In this document: positions 1,400 through 14,511 of the stretch, piece by piece
Layout of the letters: each line of letters begins with the position of its first letter
Position numbering within the stretch: position 1 is the first letter of the stretch
UHGV virus genome: UHGV-0042151
DNA: 35,904 nucleotides
Origin: a virus
Strand: one strand, 5' to 3'
The notes under the pieces: generated by a model
Told to the model about the DNA's origin: nothing
Database searches by the model: none
Seen by the model: only the letters and a program-made list of their open reading frames with translations
Program-made: the position numbers and the translations under genes

Positions 1400-2341
1400 T
1401 TACATAGATGTTTCGTTTAATTCTTCCCGACGAACGCTGTAAACGTCGGTGGCTTTTGCCAGCAGTTCGTCATCATCTGAAAGTTTTTGTGCAATGTATT
1501 TGTAAGCCTTATCCAGTTCGGAGACAGTGCTGTAATTCATCGCTGCGCTGGTAAAGGCCATCAGCATTTCTTCTGGATCACGGCTGTCCGATTTACGCGT
1601 TTGCTCATCAGGCTTTTTCGCTGGTTTAGCGTTGATCAGACTGTTCATTCCCGCAGCAGTGGTCGTTTGCGGAGTAATGTCTCGCTCAACGCGCGGTGCC
1701 GTTTCCTGTAATTCGTCTGGGGTGTAGACGCCCATGATTACGTCAGGACAGTGCAGGCGAGACCAGCGTTTTGTCGCAAGGTATGCGAGTTGTTGTTTCG
1801 GATCACTGGCCCAAAGTGTGGAGTTTCTTACCTGTGCTTGAGACAGCATTAACTCAAGCACTCGAGGTTGATCCTCGCCCTTCATGGTTGCCCATACGCG
1901 AACACCGCAGCCTTCTTCGTCTTTTAGAGTCCAGCCTGGTGCGATATATGGATTGCCGTTTTTGGATGTTTTCTCAACAAACTTACCGATCACGCGTTCC
2001 CACGGCCCGAACCACTCGTAGTTGATGCGATCTTTTGTTGGCGACATCGTTGAGATAACTGCGTTTACTAATTGGGCTTCATAACCTAGCGTGCCGTTCA
2101 CAACATGGGTTTTCTGAGCCACGGCAAACGGGTTCATTCCCCACTGCGCAGCCTGCATTGCCACGGCCATGCAATCAGCTGGTTTCCCGGCGAGGTGCGC
2201 CGGTACCGTTACGCGGCTTTGCGCCATTACCTCGGCGAATTTCATCAGTTGGTTCAAGCCGTCTGGGCTGAAAATAGTTGCAGCAGTTCCAGCGATTGCT
2301 GTGTCTACTGGTGCGTTGATGTTTGCGATGTCGTTGCTCAT
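1400..2341 (-). CDS. single-strand annealing protein, Bet/RedBeta-RecT superfamily
   Basis: ATG 2341 overlaps upstream stop (ATGA); 'AAQWGMNPF' and 'ERDITP' resemble lambda Bet segments as recalled; lies downstream of an exonuclease gene. Confidence 0.7.
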   Translation of the reverse strand: MSNDIANINAPVDTAIAGTAATIFSPDGLNQLMKFAEVMAQSRVTVPAHLAGKPADCMAVAMQAAQWGMNPFAVAQKTHVVNGTLGYEAQLVNAVISTMSPTKDRINYEWFGPWERVIGKFVEKTSKNGNPYIAPGWTLKDEEGCGVRVWATMKGEDQPRVLELMLSQAQVRNSTLWASDPKQQLAYLATKRWSRLHCPDVIMGVYTPDELQETAPRVERDITPQTTTAAGMNSLINAKPAKKPDEQTRKSDSRDPEEMLMAFTSAAMNYSTVSELDKAYKYIAQKLSDDDELLAKATDVYSVRREELNETSM

Positions 2342-3159
2342 ATGTACATATCCTGTTTGCGTGCCCACTCAGGGCGTTTAATGATTTCCACACCGCCCCA
2401 TTCATCATTGATGCGGCATTCGTGATAGGTATTCAGATCCCGGCGGAACAGAGCGTGCCCGGCATCGACATCCTGCGCATCCAGCTCGAACACGCGTACC
2501 GGATACCGACCACAATCAATGCTTTCGCTCACGGCAAGAAAGAAAAAACCATGCGGCTGACCAGTAACCCTCATTGCGCCTTCGCGGTACATTGCGTCCT
2601 GCACGTGGTAGCGGAATTCCTCGATGTGGCGTGCAAAACGGTCCATATCTGCAACCTTTTTCACGTCGACGATCACGTTGTGCTCGTTCAGCCATTTGTC
2701 TGGACGAATTCGGCACAACTCCCCCGTCTCTTCATCGTTCCAGTACATTGATGCTTCGCAGTAACCAGGTGCTTCCAGCATCCAGCGTGCCGCCGGGTGA
2801 GCCATTGCGCTATCACGCATCAGCTCCAGTTTCCGCCACTGCTCGGCATCAAGTACCGTAATCCCCATATCCGCCACATCACGAAGAAATTCCTCTTCGT
2901 CAGCTTTACCTTGTTTCGTCCGACGATCGAATTTCGGTGAAACAATGAAGCGTTTGTCGAACTCTCCAGGCTCCAGAAGCAGACAGTGCAATGCGGTTCC
3001 CATATCCAGTGCAGACTTTTTCTCTTCGTCTTCTGGTGCTGCCTGAACCCATTTAAGAAGCGCCGGATTCTTGGCAACCATGTCCAGTTGCGACTTACTC
3101 ACGCCGTCACCGGCGTGGTAGTCTTCGTTGCTGATGTCGAAATAAATTCCCGGTTTCAT
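2338..3159 (-). CDS. putative PD-(D/E)XK-family exonuclease (RecE/YqaJ-like partner of the annealing protein)
   Basis: 273-aa ORF; 'VIVDVKKVAD' D-x-K type motif; ATGA start/stop overlaps with both neighbours (3156-3159 and 2338-2341). Confidence 0.6.
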   Translation of the reverse strand: MKPGIYFDISNEDYHAGDGVSKSQLDMVAKNPALLKWVQAAPEDEEKKSALDMGTALHCLLLEPGEFDKRFIVSPKFDRRTKQGKADEEEFLRDVADMGITVLDAEQWRKLELMRDSAMAHPAARWMLEAPGYCEASMYWNDEETGELCRIRPDKWLNEHNVIVDVKKVADMDRFARHIEEFRYHVQDAMYREGAMRVTGQPHGFFFLAVSESIDCGRYPVRVFELDAQDVDAGHALFRRDLNTYHECRINDEWGGVEIIKRPEWARKQDMYI

Positions 3160-7054: not shown

Positions 7055-7399
7055 ATGAGAAAACAGATACAGGCTCTTGGTCGACTCAAAACAGGTCAGA
7101 TGAACAAAACAGAATCTGCGTATTGCCAGCACCTTGAGCTGCGTAAACGTGCAGGAGAAATCGTCTGGTATCGATTTGAGGGTATCAAGCTGCGGTTAGC
7201 TGACAACACGTTCTATACGCCCGATTTTGCTGTGATGCTCGCCACCGGCGAGATGGAACTGCACGAAGTGAAAGGTTTCTGGACCGACGACGCCAGGGTG
7301 AAAACCAAAGTCGCCGCAGATCAGTATCCGTTCCGAATCATCGGGGTAACGGTTAAACCAAAGAAAGCAGGTGGTGGCTGGATCATCGAAGAGTTCTGA
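7055..7399 (+). CDS. putative PD-(D/E)XK nuclease (DUF1064-like small phage nuclease)
   Basis: 114 aa; 'YTPDF...ELHEVKG' fits a D...E-x-K nuclease core. Confidence 0.5.
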   Translation: MRKQIQALGRLKTGQMNKTESAYCQHLELRKRAGEIVWYRFEGIKLRLADNTFYTPDFAVMLATGEMELHEVKGFWTDDARVKTKVAADQYPFRIIGVTVKPKKAGGGWIIEEF

Positions 7400-7460
7400 A
7401 TCGACGATCTTTTTAGTTATCAATGTTATCAATAAGTTATGTGGATAAGCGAGGGTAAAG

Positions 7461-8024
7461 ATGGAAAGTAATATCAAATGGTTAGTTGCCGCCGGGCATG
7501 AGATGGCTTCTGAACTGAAAGCAGAATGTGGTGCCGTTGATATGCGCAGTGTGGCAAAGCTGATCAGCGATTTGGCAACGCAACTGGAAGTGCAACTGGT
7601 GCGTGCTAATGCGCTGGCCGAAGACCAGCAGAAAGCGATTGAGTCAATTAAGCAGGCTGATGCAGCTGTTAAGTTGGCACACGAGAAGTTTTCGGCGCTG
7701 GCAGCGGAGAATGCGGGGCTAAAGTCTGGCGCTATGGACGAAATCAAGGTTATCAACCGTGGAGGGCAGGCATATTGCGTAAAAGATGGAGTGCAAGTTA
7801 ATCCCATGTATGCAAGAGGGTGGAATGACTATCGCGCAAAGTCTCTGCAATCAGACACCCCAGCTACCGATGCTTTTCTGGCTGAAATTGAACGCAAAGC
7901 AATCCGCAAGTTCATTAACAGCATTGAACACATCCTGCGTGACAAGCTGTCTCCGTATGACACCGAAGAGATGCTTGAGGCTATGCGTATTTTTCTGGAA
8001 GAACAGAGTGGTGAGCAAAAATGA
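7461..8024 (+). CDS. hypothetical protein (187 aa)
   Basis: GAGGG SD then ATG 7461; coiled-coil-like Ala/Glu-rich middle. Confidence 0.5.
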   Translation: MESNIKWLVAAGHEMASELKAECGAVDMRSVAKLISDLATQLEVQLVRANALAEDQQKAIESIKQADAAVKLAHEKFSALAAENAGLKSGAMDEIKVINRGGQAYCVKDGVQVNPMYARGWNDYRAKSLQSDTPATDAFLAEIERKAIRKFINSIEHILRDKLSPYDTEEMLEAMRIFLEEQSGEQK

Positions 8025-8338
8025 CAATCACAAAACAACGGGTAGAAGAAATCATATCCCGCATTGAAATGTATGGACATGGTGCAGGATATACCGCTGA
8101 CGAGGTTTATGACCTAGCTGTACTGGCGCTGAATTTATCAAATATCGCAAACCTGAAGCGATACGAGCTTGATATGGGTGGTTGTGACTCGTGCGGTCAG
8201 GATTGTGGCGCTGACATGACTGAAGATTCTGATGGCAATTATGTCCTGTTTGATGACGTGGTTAAGTTGTTTGAGTTTGATACAACCACTCAGAAGTTAG
8301 AAGGCCCAGCAAAGGAGGCAACCAGTGAGCAAGATTGA
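8021..8338 (+). CDS. hypothetical protein (105 aa)
   Basis: ATGA overlap with upstream gene. Confidence 0.45.
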   Translation: MTITKQRVEEIISRIEMYGHGAGYTADEVYDLAVLALNLSNIANLKRYELDMGGCDSCGQDCGADMTEDSDGNYVLFDDVVKLFEFDTTTQKLEGPAKEATSEQD

Positions 8339-8900
8339 CTATCAGGCACTGCGTGAAAAGGCAGAGAAAGCAACGTGTGGTGTGTGGTCGCTCGAATATG
8401 GAGAGGGACGATTTGATGGTGATGATGCACTAATTCATCGCGAGGTTGCTGGATATATTCCTATTTGCAGAATTGAAGGAGCGCATCCTGAAAGCGGTTT
8501 CGATGAAGATTTCCAAACTGAACAGCAGGCCAATGCTGAATTCATCGCCGCAGCCAATCCGGCTACTGTGCTGGCGCTTCTGGATGAACGGGAAAGAAAC
8601 CAGCAATACATCAAATCACGCGACCAGGAGAACGAGGATATTGCGCTAACGGTAGGGAAGCTGCGCGTTGAGCTGGAAGCCGCAGAGAAGCGCATAGCAG
8701 AACTGGAAGCGCGGGAAGTTCAATTACCGACTCGCTACGACCTTCGATATGGACATCCGATAAATGCAGATGAGCGACATGTCATGATACCTAAAGAAAA
8801 TGGCAGTTGGCTTTACCTGATTGACCTAGAACACGCATTACGCGTCGCTGACATTCGCATCAAAGGAGACGCAGGAGAACAAAACGATGAAAAACCGTAA
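8325..8900 (+). CDS. Ea22/ead-like protein
   Basis: GTG start with AAAGGAGG SD; 'AANPATVLALLDE' and coiled-coil region resemble ead/Ea22-like early proteins as recalled. Confidence 0.55.
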   Translation: MSKIDYQALREKAEKATCGVWSLEYGEGRFDGDDALIHREVAGYIPICRIEGAHPESGFDEDFQTEQQANAEFIAAANPATVLALLDERERNQQYIKSRDQENEDIALTVGKLRVELEAAEKRIAELEAREVQLPTRYDLRYGHPINADERHVMIPKENGSWLYLIDLEHALRVADIRIKGDAGEQNDEKP

Positions 8901-9249
8901 AGCAAAATTACTTCTTTTATCGCGTTCGACGGGGTACGAGAGGCTACCAATCAGCAATCACAAACGGGCGGTGATCGGCATGTTTGGTAGGGTGGTATTC
9001 GCATTTAACTATAAACCCACCGCGTCGCGGAACAGACGAGAGAAGGGGGACGCAGTGCGATGAAAAACCGTAAGGAAAAAATTCTGTTAGCTCGCAGAAA
9101 CGGTGTTGGGGTCTGGCGATGGTTGAGGATTAGTAACAGACGAGTGAGGTTGACGGGGTGTTGCGGGGTGATGGGGCACAGTTGTTGCAAAAAGCCCAGC
9201 GCGGCGCAAAACCGCTGGAAAAACCACCTGCGCGCTAAAGGAGACTGAT

Positions 9250-9459
9250 ATGGCTATTGCCGCAAGTTACACCATGCATCTCTACTGTGATTGTCGCCAG
9301 TGTACAAATGGTAAATATCAAACGCCAGACTTCGGTGAGTATATCGGTACGTCATGGGCTGGCTGTGCAAAAGAGGCGCGCAAGGACGGCTGGCGAATAA
9401 GCAAAGACAAAACACGTGCTTTTGCGCCAGGGCATAAAGTTTTAAGGATTAACAAATGA
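9250..9459 (+). CDS. small Cys-rich hypothetical protein (69 aa)
   Basis: AAAGGAGA SD then ATG 9250; 'CDCRQC'. Confidence 0.4.
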   Translation: MAIAASYTMHLYCDCRQCTNGKYQTPDFGEYIGTSWAGCAKEARKDGWRISKDKTRAFAPGHKVLRINK

Positions 9460-9968
9460 CCACTATTACCAGAGAACAGGCACAGAAAATTATTGAAGCA
9501 GCCGATGAGGTTATTAGTGCGCTGGCCGGAACTAATGAGGATGTTAACCCTGATAGCGATAACATGCTACGTCTGTGGGATGACCTGAATGACCGTCACG
9601 CGCCCCCTGAAGTTGTGCGTGAGCTGGCACGTATTGTGCTGGCATCGCTGGAAGCAGAACCGATGGCATGGCGATATCGCTACGTGAAAAAAGGCATTAC
9701 GGACTCACAGGGGGAGCCGTGGGTTGGTGACTGGAAATATGTACCGACAAAAGAGGATTGCAACGACAGACCGAACTATGAAATTCAGGCGTTATTCACT
9801 GCCCCGCCTGTGCCACTGACACCAGAAGGATTGATTAAAGCAGTGCGCTTCTATGAACAGGTTAAGCGTGAGAATCCGCCAGTCGAAACCGGAGCATGGA
9901 AAGACGCTGTTGACTGGGTGCTCAAAGAGGCTTGCCAGGCTGTAAACATTGGTACCAAAGGAGAGTGA
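9456..9968 (+). CDS. hypothetical protein, 'MTTIT' paralog 1
   Basis: Shares N-terminal domain with 10164 and 10579 genes ('ARIVLASLEAEP', C-terminal 'TKGE'). Confidence 0.55.
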   Translation: MTTITREQAQKIIEAADEVISALAGTNEDVNPDSDNMLRLWDDLNDRHAPPEVVRELARIVLASLEAEPMAWRYRYVKKGITDSQGEPWVGDWKYVPTKEDCNDRPNYEIQALFTAPPVPLTPEGLIKAVRFYEQVKRENPPVETGAWKDAVDWVLKEACQAVNIGTKGE

Positions 9969-9969
9969 G

Positions 9970-10161
9970 ATGAACGGACAAATATCAATTGTTCGACCGG
10001 GAGCATGTGACGATAGCGAGATACGAATGATTATTCGTCTGGCGATGGGGAAAACAATAACCGCTCTCATTACTCCAGAAAATCTCGCATTAGCATTAAC
10101 CGGAAAGTCAGACCTACCAGTAGAGCTAAAGCTGCGAAATGTTGAGATTAAGGTGAAATAG
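9970..10161 (+). CDS. small hypothetical protein (63 aa)
   Basis: AAGGAG SD 7 nt before ATG 9970 (track start 9949 is an alternative codon). Confidence 0.4.
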   Translation: MNGQISIVRPGACDDSEIRMIIRLAMGKTITALITPENLALALTGKSDLPVELKLRNVEIKVK

Positions 10162-10163
10162 CT

Positions 10164-10577
10164 ATGACCACTATAACCAAAGAGCGACTACTGACAATCA
10201 AGCAGTGGCGCGAAACATACGGACCTGGTAGCAACGTTGTACTGCCAGCAGAAGAAGCGGAAGAACTGGCGCGGATTGCTCTGGCAGCGCTGGAAGTCGA
10301 GCCGATAGGTTTCCGTTGCAGGCGCAATGATAACCTTGGTGATTGGAGTTACGTATATCATCGAGAGCCAGATGATTTTGAGCGCAAACATTTAGTGATA
10401 GAGGGCATTTACGCCGCCCATCCAGCACCGGTAGTGCCTGAAGAAGCAACTCCGGAAAACGTAGAAATGCTCTCTGGCTATGTTTCCACGTACAAATTAA
10501 CCGATAGCGAGCGCGATATTGCTGCCGAAAGATGGAACGCCTGCCGCGCCGCCATGCTTCAGGGTAAAGGAGAGTGA
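10164..10577 (+). CDS. hypothetical protein, 'MTTIT' paralog 2
   Basis: 'MTTITKERLLTIKQ...ARIALAALEVEP...QGKGE'. Confidence 0.55.
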   Translation: MTTITKERLLTIKQWRETYGPGSNVVLPAEEAEELARIALAALEVEPIGFRCRRNDNLGDWSYVYHREPDDFERKHLVIEGIYAAHPAPVVPEEATPENVEMLSGYVSTYKLTDSERDIAAERWNACRAAMLQGKGE

Positions 10578-10578
10578 T

Positions 10579-11142
10579 ATGACCACTATAACCGATAAGA
10601 AACAGTATCCAGGCGAGCAATATCTTAATGAGCTGATCACCAACATAGAGTTTGCTGCAAGGGCACCAGTTGAAGTCGTGAGAGCAATGGCAGCAGAGCT
10701 ACAGAAGCGGCGCGAAGCTGATAGTGCAGAACCTGTAAGTAATCATGAAGAGTTGCCGCTTGATTATCTCCAAGGTCAAAAAGATGGTCTTGAATGGGCT
10801 GCGCAGCTTGCAGAAGCAAATCACCCACAAACTGGCGACTGGCTTTACGATGACCCGCTGGAGCTGGCTAAAGCTATCAGAAAAGGTCCTGACATGCCTG
10901 AATTCGATGGACCAACTCCGGTAACTACGGATGGTTGGATAAGCTGTAGTGATCTAATGCCGGAAGACACCAAAATGTTACTGGCATTTAGTCAAGGTGA
11001 AATCGTGGCAGCATATTGGAACTGGGTTGTAAATCCAATTGATTACAAAAAATATAGAGCTTTCACGTATTTATCAGGAAATATCTTGGATGACGTAACT
11101 CACTGGATGCCGCTACCAGAGCCGCCGCAGGAGGTGAAGTGA
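10579..11142 (+). CDS. 'MTTIT' paralog 3 fused to DUF551-like C-terminal domain
   Basis: AAAGGAGAG SD then ATG 10579; C-terminus '[23 protein letters not shown]...[10 protein letters not shown]' resembles DUF551. Confidence 0.55.
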
Positions 11143-11483
11143 TGGACTATTCACAGTTAAGTGATTTTGAAATTAACAGAATGGTAGGAGACATAATTTT
11201 TAAAGGCCTTTGGGCATGTAAACCGGAAACATCAGGGAATAACACCAACAAATGGTATTACGGAAATACTGATACAACTTTTGAGCCATTAAACCATTTA
11301 CCTGACTACTGCAATGATCCTAGCGCCTCATGGCCGATTATTGAGAAACACAGGATTTCTATCTTAGACCAGTTAACTGAATGGTGTGTTGATGCAAAAG
11401 GCGTAAGACCAATATTTGATACCAGACCTCTCCGCGCCGCCATGATTGTATTTCTCATGATGCAGGAAAATCAGAATGGCTAA
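11142..11483 (+). CDS. hypothetical protein (113 aa)
   Basis: TGATG overlap with upstream stop. Confidence 0.45.
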
Positions 11484-11814
11484 ATCAGCAGCAGAGCGCA
11501 AAGCCGCTCAGAGAGCCAGACAAGCTGCATCTGGTGTGCGTAAGCTGGAAATTGTGCTTGATGCTCAGGAAATTGAAATGCTGGAGCGTAACTGCGCCGC
11601 CCGGCGCCCTGGTCGCGATCCCTATGAAATGGCCGAGTACATCGCGCTGCTGATCCGCCAGGATGATGCACGCGTGCGCGGGCGTATAAAATCGATCAGC
11701 AGAAAACGTTGCGGTAAGTGCGGCGAGAGAGTTCCAGTTAATTCATGCCCGTGTAATGGTGACTCGCAATGCTGGGTGACTAAAGGCTGGCATGAAACGA
11801 AATTAATAGTGTGA
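11476..11814 (+). CDS. small basic protein with C-terminal Cys cluster (candidate regulator, last early gene)
   Basis: AGGAAAA SD then ATG 11476; '[23 protein letters not shown]'; directly followed by intrinsic terminator and terminase genes. Confidence 0.45.
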
Positions 11815-11822
11815 CATGTCAC
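11811..11822. promoter_or_regulatory. 12-bp perfect palindrome GTGACATGTCAC (copy 1 of 3)
   Basis: Overlaps stop codon of 11476..11814 gene; 40 bp upstream of terminator. Confidence 0.35.
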
Positions 11823-11863
11823 GAGTAGATTATGCATGATGAATTTGATGGGTTTTGAATACT

Positions 11864-11889
11864 GCCGCCAACTATGGCGGCTTTATTTT
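11864..11889 (+). terminator. rho-independent terminator at early/late boundary
   Basis: GCCGCC-aactat-GGCGGC hairpin followed by TTTATTTT. Confidence 0.55.
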
Positions 11890-11900
11890 GCATGGTATTA

Positions 11901-14091: not shown

Positions 14092-14511
14092 TTATTTAAT
14101 GGCATTAAATCCAGCGTTGATGGCTTCCGCAATATTGATGGCACTTGTTTTATCGAAGTGCCCATTCTGAATAAGCGCCGCATGCAGGCATTGTAACTTC
14201 ATGTTGTATAAGTGTTCGCTCATGTAATCATTATCACTTTTTGCTTTAGCGTAAACAGCGCGAGAAATATCAAACACATCGCCTTTTTCCATTTCAGAAC
14301 GTTGTGCTGTTATCCAGTCATGGAACGTAACGCTAGTACCATGGTCTTCGCTAAGAGTTAACCCGGCCAGTCCCTCACTCTGAATTACTTCGTAATGCAT
14401 TTCATTATCAGCAAAAACGCCATAAAAAATGCAGTCTTCAGCCTGAACGATACGAGAATATTTTAATGGCCATTCATTTAGATACTTAGCCAACATATCA
14501 ATTGTCTTCAT
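14092..14511 (-). CDS. hypothetical moron protein (139 aa), opposite strand to packaging genes
   Basis: AAGGTGAG SD then ATG 14511; no recognisable domain; embedded between TerL and portal. Confidence 0.5.
   Translation of the reverse strand: MKTIDMLAKYLNEWPLKYSRIVQAEDCIFYGVFADNEMHYEVIQSEGLAGLTLSEDHGTSVTFHDWITAQRSEMEKGDVFDISRAVYAKAKSDNDYMSEHLYNMKLQCLHAALIQNGHFDKTSAINIAEAINAGFNAIK

Follow-up and report, generated by a model that had tools for sequence, protein, structure and literature searches.

UHGV virus genome UHGV-0042151 is a 35,904-nucleotide stretch of DNA (the window) that corresponds to a Uetakevirus-like E. coli prophage. Its top phage matches are vB_EcoP_ZX5 and TL-2011b, and the prophage of E. 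coli MS 198-1 (L001, NZ_CP146687; the RefSeq twin) is 99.9% identical to it. This analysis concerns a row of small genes at 9237-11142, which lies within the accessory ('ea/nin-like') region of the early operon in this Uetakevirus-type prophage. Three plus-strand open reading frames (ORFs) in the row open with the pentapeptide MTTIT, at 9456, 10164, and 10579. The first, c1 (9456..9968), encodes a 170-aa protein that starts MTTITRE and ends TKGE-stop. The second, c2 (10164..10577), encodes 137 aa, starts MTTITKE, and ends GKGE-stop. The third, c3 (10579..11142), encodes a 187-aa EaA-type DUF551 protein that starts MTTITDK. Gene X (9970..10161, plus strand) lies between c1 and c2 and encodes a 63-aa basic protein of phrog_1222 (E = 6e-41); it is unrelated to the MTTIT genes and stands directly 5' of c2-type genes in many loci. 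A sequence-only reading had correctly noticed the three MTTIT genes within 9456-11142 and had taken them for a tandem triplication of one gene, the third copy of which was fused to a DUF551-like domain, with domain shuffling by repeated illegitimate recombination.

Relationship among the MTTIT genes

c1 and c2 are homologous end to end (BLASTP E = 9e-13, 30% identity). Both have the features that define their family, namely a leader that ends in ELARIALASLEAEP, a beta core with GDWxYV and (F/Y)xAPPxP, and a tail with ACxA..KGE. The acidic c1 protein (isoelectric point (pI) 4.7) consists of a leader (residues 1-69), a beta core (about 70-118), and a helical tail (about 119-170). The corresponding modules of c2, also acidic (pI 5.0), are residues 1-47, 48-92, and 93-137. 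The PHROGs collection places the two proteins in phrog_660/5117/3323/60: c1 matches phrog_660 over its full length (E = 1.5e-53), and c2 matches phrog_5117/60/660. The c1 tail (135-169) also matches phrog_250 of the Ead group (E = 2.4e-6). Pfam returned no match for c1, c2, or X (none at E <= 0.1 for c1 and c2), and the c1/c2 family (phrog_660/5117) is without a Pfam model. The best DNA repeat between c1 and c2 in a search of 9000-11600 was D1, 63 nt of 71% identity at 9602-9664 and 10244-10306. Both genes have relatives of at least 95% nucleotide identity elsewhere, in other gene contexts. Two or more ORFs of the family occur at 80 of 164 loci (two at 69, three at 11).

Comparison of c3 with c1 or c2 gave no support for homology (BLASTP E = 0.27). 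Alignment of the c3 leader family with the c1/c2 leader families by hhalign gave P = 0.003 with MTTIT included and P = 0.3 without it, and a one-sequence search of c3 with the c1/c2 family profile gave E = 0.074. Residues 1-55 of c3 match phrog_6847, a family distinct from the c1/c2 PHROGs. Remote homology was considered from the segment APxEVVRxxA that the c3 leader has in common with c1 (7 of 10 residues); the similarity is non-significant and the idea was rejected. The c3 leader appears positionally analogous to the c1 and c2 leaders, with undetectable sequence similarity. On these comparisons, c1 and c2 are old, diverged paralogues, and c3 shares only their 5' boundary, the first five codons. 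The N-terminal domain of about 60 aa that had been assigned to all three genes is found in c1 and c2, where ARI(V/A)LA(S/A)LE(A/V)EP recurs and homology extends over the whole length; c3 shares essentially the first five residues only.

An in-place triplication of one MTTIT gene, with a third copy that gained DUF551 and illegitimate shuffling, would explain three identical pentapeptide starts within 1.1 kb, a repeated ribosome-binding site (RBS) string, and the homology of c1 and c2. Two paralogues, an unrelated gene that shares their start, and an intervening gene X do not constitute a tandem triplication. c1 and c2 are only 30% identical and have their closer relatives in other contexts, gene X separates them, c3 is non-homologous beyond five codons, and the joints described below lie in conserved sequence and not at random sites. 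The c3 type is also invariant and widespread in its own right. At least 120 clusters contain its 118-aa N-part with 97-100% identity, which makes c3 a common complete gene type and not a third copy newly fused to DUF551. Triplication in place is very improbable.

The ratio of nonsynonymous to synonymous substitution (dN/dS) against diverged homologues is 0.11-0.21 for c1, 0.04-0.29 for c2, and 0.06-0.44 for X, and values of 0.04-0.3 indicate that the genes are coding. The Prokaryotic Genome Annotation Pipeline (PGAP) starts c1 at an internal Met at 9663 (101 aa, WP_113684759.1). The evidence favors the 170-aa reading from 9456 as the probable gene, because 170-aa homologues are present in many contigs, the c1 start overlaps the stop of the preceding 69-aa gene as ATGA, and dN/dS over the leader points the same way.

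PGAP flags c2 as partial and 'missing C-terminus'. c2 homologues (n = 4245) include many proteins of 200-235 aa with DUF551, and c2 is a short form of a family whose members often extend into this domain. One alternative is that c2 is a dead fragment, left when a c2-DUF551 fusion was split by insertion of the 5' two-thirds of a c3-type gene. Most close homologues are indeed the 200-235-aa DUF551 forms, PGAP marks the locus 'incomplete, missing C-terminus', and one natural protein (P0069) joins a c2-type N-part to exactly the DUF551 cassette of c3 in its PVTTDGW variant. Against this history, the 137-aa form stops at the canonical KGE-stop/Shine-Dalgarno (SD)/ATG junction, as do c1 and numerous further genes, dozens of contigs encode short forms with QGKGE or QGKGK at the end in at least five leader/tail combinations, the c2-to-c3 adjacency recurs at three other loci (L037, L041, and L043), dN/dS is 0.04-0.29, and c1 is a natural stand-alone protein of the same layout. 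The evidence favors c2 as a probably genuine, intact short form, because it ends like c1, short forms exist elsewhere, and its adjacency to c3 recurs; a dead c2 is unlikely. A fusion of c2 and c3 by read-through or frameshifting was also considered and rejected: c3 lies in the +1 frame, and a ribosome that read through the TGA would add only 6 residues before it reached a TAA in the same frame.

Conserved starts and gene junctions

ATGACCACTATWACC occurs three times in the window compared to 0.1 expected with 2 mismatches permitted. The MTTIT start of c1, ATGACCACTATTACC (9456..9470, plus strand), is a 15-mer that is near-invariant across at least 8 otherwise different, unrelated leader types, with its three four-fold-degenerate Thr codons nearly fixed. 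MITIT, MTSIT, and MTTFT are start variants among the homologues. Three strict MTTIT starts at one locus were found only in the window and the RefSeq twin.

The RBS/start string AAAGGAGAsTGAkATG also occurs three times in the window (9237, 9957, and 10566; 0 expected). Junction J1, AAAGGAGACTGATATG (9237..9252, plus strand), lies between a phrog_1380 gene and a phrog_926 gene. In junction J2, AAAGGAGAGTGAGATG (9957..9972, plus strand), the KGE codons form the SD sequence and are followed by the c1 stop and the start of gene X. Junction J3, AAAGGAGAGTGATATG (10566..10581, plus strand), contains the c2 stop, the SD sequence, and the c3 start, and this spacing recurs in the three loci with c2-to-c3 adjacency. 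The sequence-only reading had noticed two copies of the repeat, which are present (9957-9972 and 10566-10581, a shift of one base). The genes that follow the string are the 69-aa gene (the third copy, at 9237-9252), X (the 9957 copy), and c3; the first two are unrelated to the MTTIT genes, and the string is thus no hallmark of an MTTIT gene. Related loci totalling 1.13 Mb contain 160 copies of the junction AAAGGAGAsTGAnATG, which connects several kinds of gene end with at least 12 kinds of downstream gene. Gene starts that are identical and RBS strings that recur in a phage accessory region are markers of exchange boundaries and do not identify copies of a single gene.

Five consecutive genes (8862-10577) end in KGD/KGE codons (AAAGGAGA) that form the Shine-Dalgarno sequence of the next gene. 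The early-operon genes are translationally coupled via these KGD/KGE-stop/SD junctions. In the Ead gene and the first of the two MKNRK genes described below, the KGD/KGE motif is followed by a few extra codons and not by an immediate stop.

Modules and natural chimeras

Proteins of the c1/c2 type are assembled from four exchangeable pieces: a leader, a beta core, a helical tail, and an optional C-terminal extension that is mostly DUF551. The leader is MTTIT plus 20-45 variable residues before the conserved end, the beta core has at least 3 types, and the helical tail has at least 3 types that end ACxA...KGE. When 1.84 billion cluster representatives were searched, the c1/c2 profile matched 2072 clusters, 561 of them at E <= 1e-10; the matched proteins are 62-412 aa long, and the part of the profile that is covered differs among them. 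Domains found in 147 representatives were DUF551 (30), Ead_Ea22 (6), dATP/dGTP pyrophosphohydrolase (1), and YqaJ (1).

Every module combination occurs in nature. The c2 leader is followed by the c1 core and tail in P0299, the c1 leader by the c2 core and tail in P0018 and P0047, and the c1 leader and core by a c2-type tail in P0319. The P0069 fusion of a c2-type N-part carries the c3 cassette with the rare PVTTDGW variant included. A protein of phage ZX5 fuses an Ead-type coiled coil to the c1 tail, and a TUM12368 protein combines a leader, a third core type, a second leader-like piece, the c3 middle module, and DUF551.

Distribution of breakpoints

Window positions 8300-11900 were compared by blastn to 161 related viral and genomic loci, with high identity set at >=88%. 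Each distinct subject segment was counted once, and endpoints between 9200 and 11150 were scored. A total of 256 of the 289 unique endpoints of high-scoring segment pairs (89%) fell in 11 short sites that make up 21% of 9200-11150. These sites are the three KGE-stop/SD/ATG junctions, the three MTTIT starts, the two ELARI...EP linkers, YAAHPAPVVPEE, the c3 leader end, and the two DUF551 flanks. The c1 linker ELARIVLASLEAEP (9621..9662, plus strand), at the leader/core joint in the left arm of D1, collected 40 unique endpoints. Its c2 counterpart ELARIALAALEVEP (10263..10304, plus strand), in the right arm of D1, collected 35. The linker between the c2 core and tail, YAAHPAPVVPEE (10410..10445, plus strand), collected 28 unique endpoints; alternative tails of homologues begin here, and its PxPVVPE joint is also present in an Ead-type protein of phage ZX5.

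Segments of at least 88% identity end abruptly at the linkers with unrelated sequence beyond, and such abrupt loss of identity is the signature of exchange and not of divergence. The recombination linkers are the MTTIT start, ELARIALASLEAEP, YAAPPAPVVPEE, the KGE-stop/SD/ATG junction, and the DUF551 flanks. Segments that end at short conserved sequences and reciprocal chimeras, the two marks of a mosaic formed by modular exchange, were both found.

An alternative is that MTTIT and the linkers are kept purely for the needs of the protein, such as an N-terminal signal, efficient initiation, or helix capping, with the mosaic being selection on independently diverging genes. Synonymous linker differences between c1 and c2 and the MITIT, MTSIT, and MTTFT variants fit this explanation, and the KGE tail is a strong SD sequence for the next gene, a functional ground for its conservation. 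It does not account for the abrupt ends of the high-identity segments, for exact chimeras of the window's own alleles (P0018 and L163, described below), or for three four-fold-degenerate Thr start codons that are nearly fixed across unrelated leaders. We regard conservation for protein function alone as improbable.

A crossover in a sibling prophage

A sibling prophage (L163, Logan ERR8573688_98) that is 95-98% identical to the window captured one exchange. In L163, window positions 7397-9664 join directly to 10263-10965. Exactly 642 nt between the linker copies are missing, which removes the c1 core and tail, gene X, and the c2 leader. L163 switches from one segment to the other at the c1 linker, in a stretch of 9 identical nucleotides (CGCTGGAAG) that forms part of the 63-nt, 71%-identical D1 repeat. 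The encoded protein, P0018, is an exact chimera of the window alleles and consists of c1 residues 1-65 followed by c2 from residue 45 to the end. L163 also differs in c3, where the DUF551 interior (10965-11092) is replaced between conserved flanks, and NinX is absent. A crossover within 9 nt of identity between diverged paralogues is a clean, datable case of sub-genic mosaicism.

Red and RecT-type proteins recombine sequences that are 22% diverged and create lambdoid mosaics (PMC2327257, PMC3945230). The window encodes a RecT-family annealing protein (1403..2368, minus strand; Pfam RecT E = 2.2e-44) and its putative exonuclease partner, a PDDEXK-like (DUF3799) protein (2341..3159, minus strand; Pfam DUF3799 E = 9.5e-23). 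Homology-guided (homeologous) exchange fits better than the illegitimate recombination proposed earlier, because the joints are in short conserved sequence, the crossover used a 9-nt identity, and RecT and a PDDEXK nuclease are encoded. RecT is probably the driver of the exchanges, a candidacy that follows from the presence of its gene. Domain shuffling in a nin-like region, also proposed from the sequence, agrees with the data: the next gene is NinX, the flanks are replication and terminase genes, and sub-genic exchange is abundant.

These results point, with a probability of roughly 0.7, to a patchwork assembled by exchange of modules between phages at short linkers, not by triplication in place; its acidic gene products would be expressed early and be non-essential. 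Exchange between phages would have assembled the row of c1, X, and c2, followed by a standard EaA-type c3. The linkers would serve as homeologous recombination sites, with catalysis probably by phage annealing proteins such as the RecT of the window, and the KGE-stop/SD/ATG junction would double as a site of translational coupling. The locus is a case of the already known mosaic accessory genes of lambdoid type.

Several points weigh against this interpretation. The comparison loci were picked by a match to c1 or c2 and are partly redundant. Several linker sites were defined post hoc on the same data, which inflates the enrichment p-value; the breakpoint enrichment is real and its p-value is not literal. 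Linker codons drift synonymously between c1 and c2 (4 of 11 identical codons differ), so selection at the level of the protein maintains the linkers, and recombination may make use of them only incidentally. With a single caught crossover, either arrangement may be the ancestral one, and the role of RecT is drawn from gene presence. The functional part is weakened by the low confidence of the structure models and by the searches reported below, in which no fold or PDB match reached significance and the NCBIfam and PADLOC models gave none.

The L163 sequence has a Tad2-like (PF11195) gene at 8160-8456 (minus strand), just 3' of the large terminase gene. An unrelated 139-aa ORF occupies its place in the window (14092-14511, minus strand). 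Pfam found no match in window positions 14095-14511 (minus strand), and the Tad2-like gene of L163 is not in the window. This position looks like another swap site.

c3 and the DUF551 cassette

c3 (pI 4.4) consists of a leader (residues 1-52, MTTIT...EADSAEP), a middle module (53-118), and DUF551 (119-184). The leader and middle module are found separately in other loci. Residues 119-184 match positions 1-68 of the 68-position DUF551 model (PF04448) with 72.4 bits and E = 5.7e-20 (the Pfam gathering scores are 22 bits for DUF551 and 27 bits for Ead/Ea22-like, PF13935), which bears out the claim that the third gene has a different C-terminal domain. Proteins of the c3 type are named 'Eaa protein' or 'DUF551 domain-containing protein' in source records.

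The DUF551 domain of c3 (10933..11130, plus strand) has two conserved flanks, one of them DGWISCSERMP (as DGWISCS..MP), around a swappable interior cassette. The mean identity among 101 c3-type proteins is 98.6% in the N-part and 35.1% in the DUF551 interior. The interiors form 17 cassettes at 70% clustering, and 11 of the 17 also occur on c2-type N-termini. These figures quantify the reassortment of the DUF551 cassette among constant N-terminal scaffolds. A diversity-generating retroelement was considered as the source of the DUF551 variability and rejected: no template/variable repeat pair was found within 9000-11600, and the variants are discrete, shared cassettes. There was no reverse transcriptase among the window ORFs scanned, which were part of the ORFs of the window.

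The invariant c3 N-part also occurs in P0134, P0135, P0187, and P0214, in which a Cys-rich CxxCxGxG (DnaJ-zinc-finger-like) cassette or another cassette replaces DUF551. In the RefSeq twin, c3 (4380-4942 of L001, equal to window 10579-11142) is split into two coding sequences by a frameshift inside DUF551; the window c3 is intact.

Of all features of the locus, the pairing of a constant scaffold with a variable cassette is the most interesting. The pattern of a 98.6%-identical scaffold and a cassette with at least 17 freely mixing DUF551 types or a DnaJ-like Cys-rich form underlies a further proposal, that c1/c2, EaA, and Ea22 belong to one combinatorial system whose flanks are kept as recombination handles that would let temperate phages rapidly re-target a variable host or defense protein. 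This proposal is tentative and rather unlikely. If true, it would be a recombination-based analogue of specificity switching that acts in early infection.

Structure and relation to known systems

The AlphaFold2 model of c1 has 3 helices, a three-stranded beta meander, and 2 helices with a mean confidence (pLDDT) of 58.9, which is low. The c3 model has a helical N-part and a beta domain (133-178, pLDDT about 80), and its overall pLDDT of 57.7 is also low. Foldseek found no match in the PDB at E <= 0.001. A weak run of Tudor/chromo-like hits to the DUF551 beta domain (E = 0.2-0.6) is no more than a lead. Neither sequence nor profile searches detected relatives among PDB chains, and the NCBIfam and PADLOC models were negative at E <= 0.01 for all four proteins (c1, X, c2, and c3) and for their neighbors. 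Literature searches on DUF551, on Ea22 combined with anti-defense, and on 'Eaa protein' turned up functional work on Ea22 and YfdS but none on the other genes.

Ea22 is reported to be mosaic and pro-lysogenic, its C-terminal domains are acidic, and DUF551 is a portable domain (PMC10834534). The Ead/Ea22-like proteins (PF13935) of lambda, Stx phages, and P22 are early, acidic, and non-essential, and they have a helical N-part and swappable C-terminal domains that include a DUF551 variant (PMC10834534). The present locus resembles them in having an Ead/Ea22-like neighbor gene and a c1 tail module that is common to Ead types in other phages. It differs in that c1, c2, and c3 have no PF13935 match and have short leaders (47-69 aa) rather than long coiled coils. 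Among DUF551 (PF04448) proteins are YfdS of the cryptic prophage CPS-53 and the P22-type EaA; c3 has the complete domain, whereas c1 and c2 lack it. YfdS is reportedly linked to oxidative-stress tolerance and, together with yfdQR, to inhibition of replication initiation on over-expression (PMC4776307, PMC10834534). The boundary sequences of the lambdoid modular theory and Red/RecT recombination likewise involve short conserved module borders and a Rad52-like annealing protein in the phage (PMC2327257, PMC3945230). In contrast to those boundaries, many joints here are inside genes, at domain borders, with identities as short as 9-16 nt. PHROG families 660, 5117, 3323, and 60 match c1/c2 end to end or by module and 6847 is the c3 leader, all listed as 'unknown function'. 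phrog_60 is a composite of Ead, c1/c2-core, and DUF551 segments and therefore is not a single family.

The c1, c2, and c3 proteins are all acidic (pI 4.4-5.0). By analogy with mosaic Ea22, the helical N-parts would be a constant scaffold or oligomerization element, and the variable C-terminal cassettes would bind host or competitor proteins. The analogy weakly suggests that c1, c2, and c3 may be early accessory adaptor proteins that act through such cassettes. The module map shows experimenters which pieces are constant and which are variable.

Surrounding genes and prevalence

The DNA upstream of the row encodes a DnaT/helix-turn-helix protein and lambda-P-type replication genes. An Ead/Ea22-like gene (8325..8900, plus strand; Pfam Ead_Ea22, PF13935, E = 2.3e-34, 119.4 bits) sits 550 nt upstream of c1 and belongs to the same mosaic module pool. 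Its end is overlapped by the first of two small basic plus-strand ORFs of phrog_1380 that start MKNRK (8887-9063, 58 aa; 9060-9248, 62 aa). The two are 42% identical with a pI of about 11.7, and PGAP annotates the second only. Just upstream of the MTTIT genes, this MKNRK pair is a genuine tandem pair. The 69-aa gene (9250-9459, plus strand; phrog_926) follows 3' of junction J1. Downstream of c3 are a NinX family gene (11139..11483, plus strand; Pfam Phage_P22_NinX E = 1.1e-16), a putative regulator, and the small terminase subunit gene at 11855. With NinX as the next gene and a position between the lambda-P-type replication genes and the small terminase gene, 'nin-like region' is a fair label. 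The left end of the window encodes an MT-A70 family methyltransferase and a PerC-like activator (53-712 and 696-992, both minus strand).

The whole arrangement is present in 1 of 5426 complete E. coli genomes, and pieces of it are present in 3573. About two thirds of complete E. coli genomes carry these genes, none of which has a known biochemical function. Matches to window positions 9200-11500 were located on plasmids at 609 of 6575 places in E. coli genomes, many of them replicons of about 90-100 kb, which indicates that the same modules circulate in phage-plasmids.

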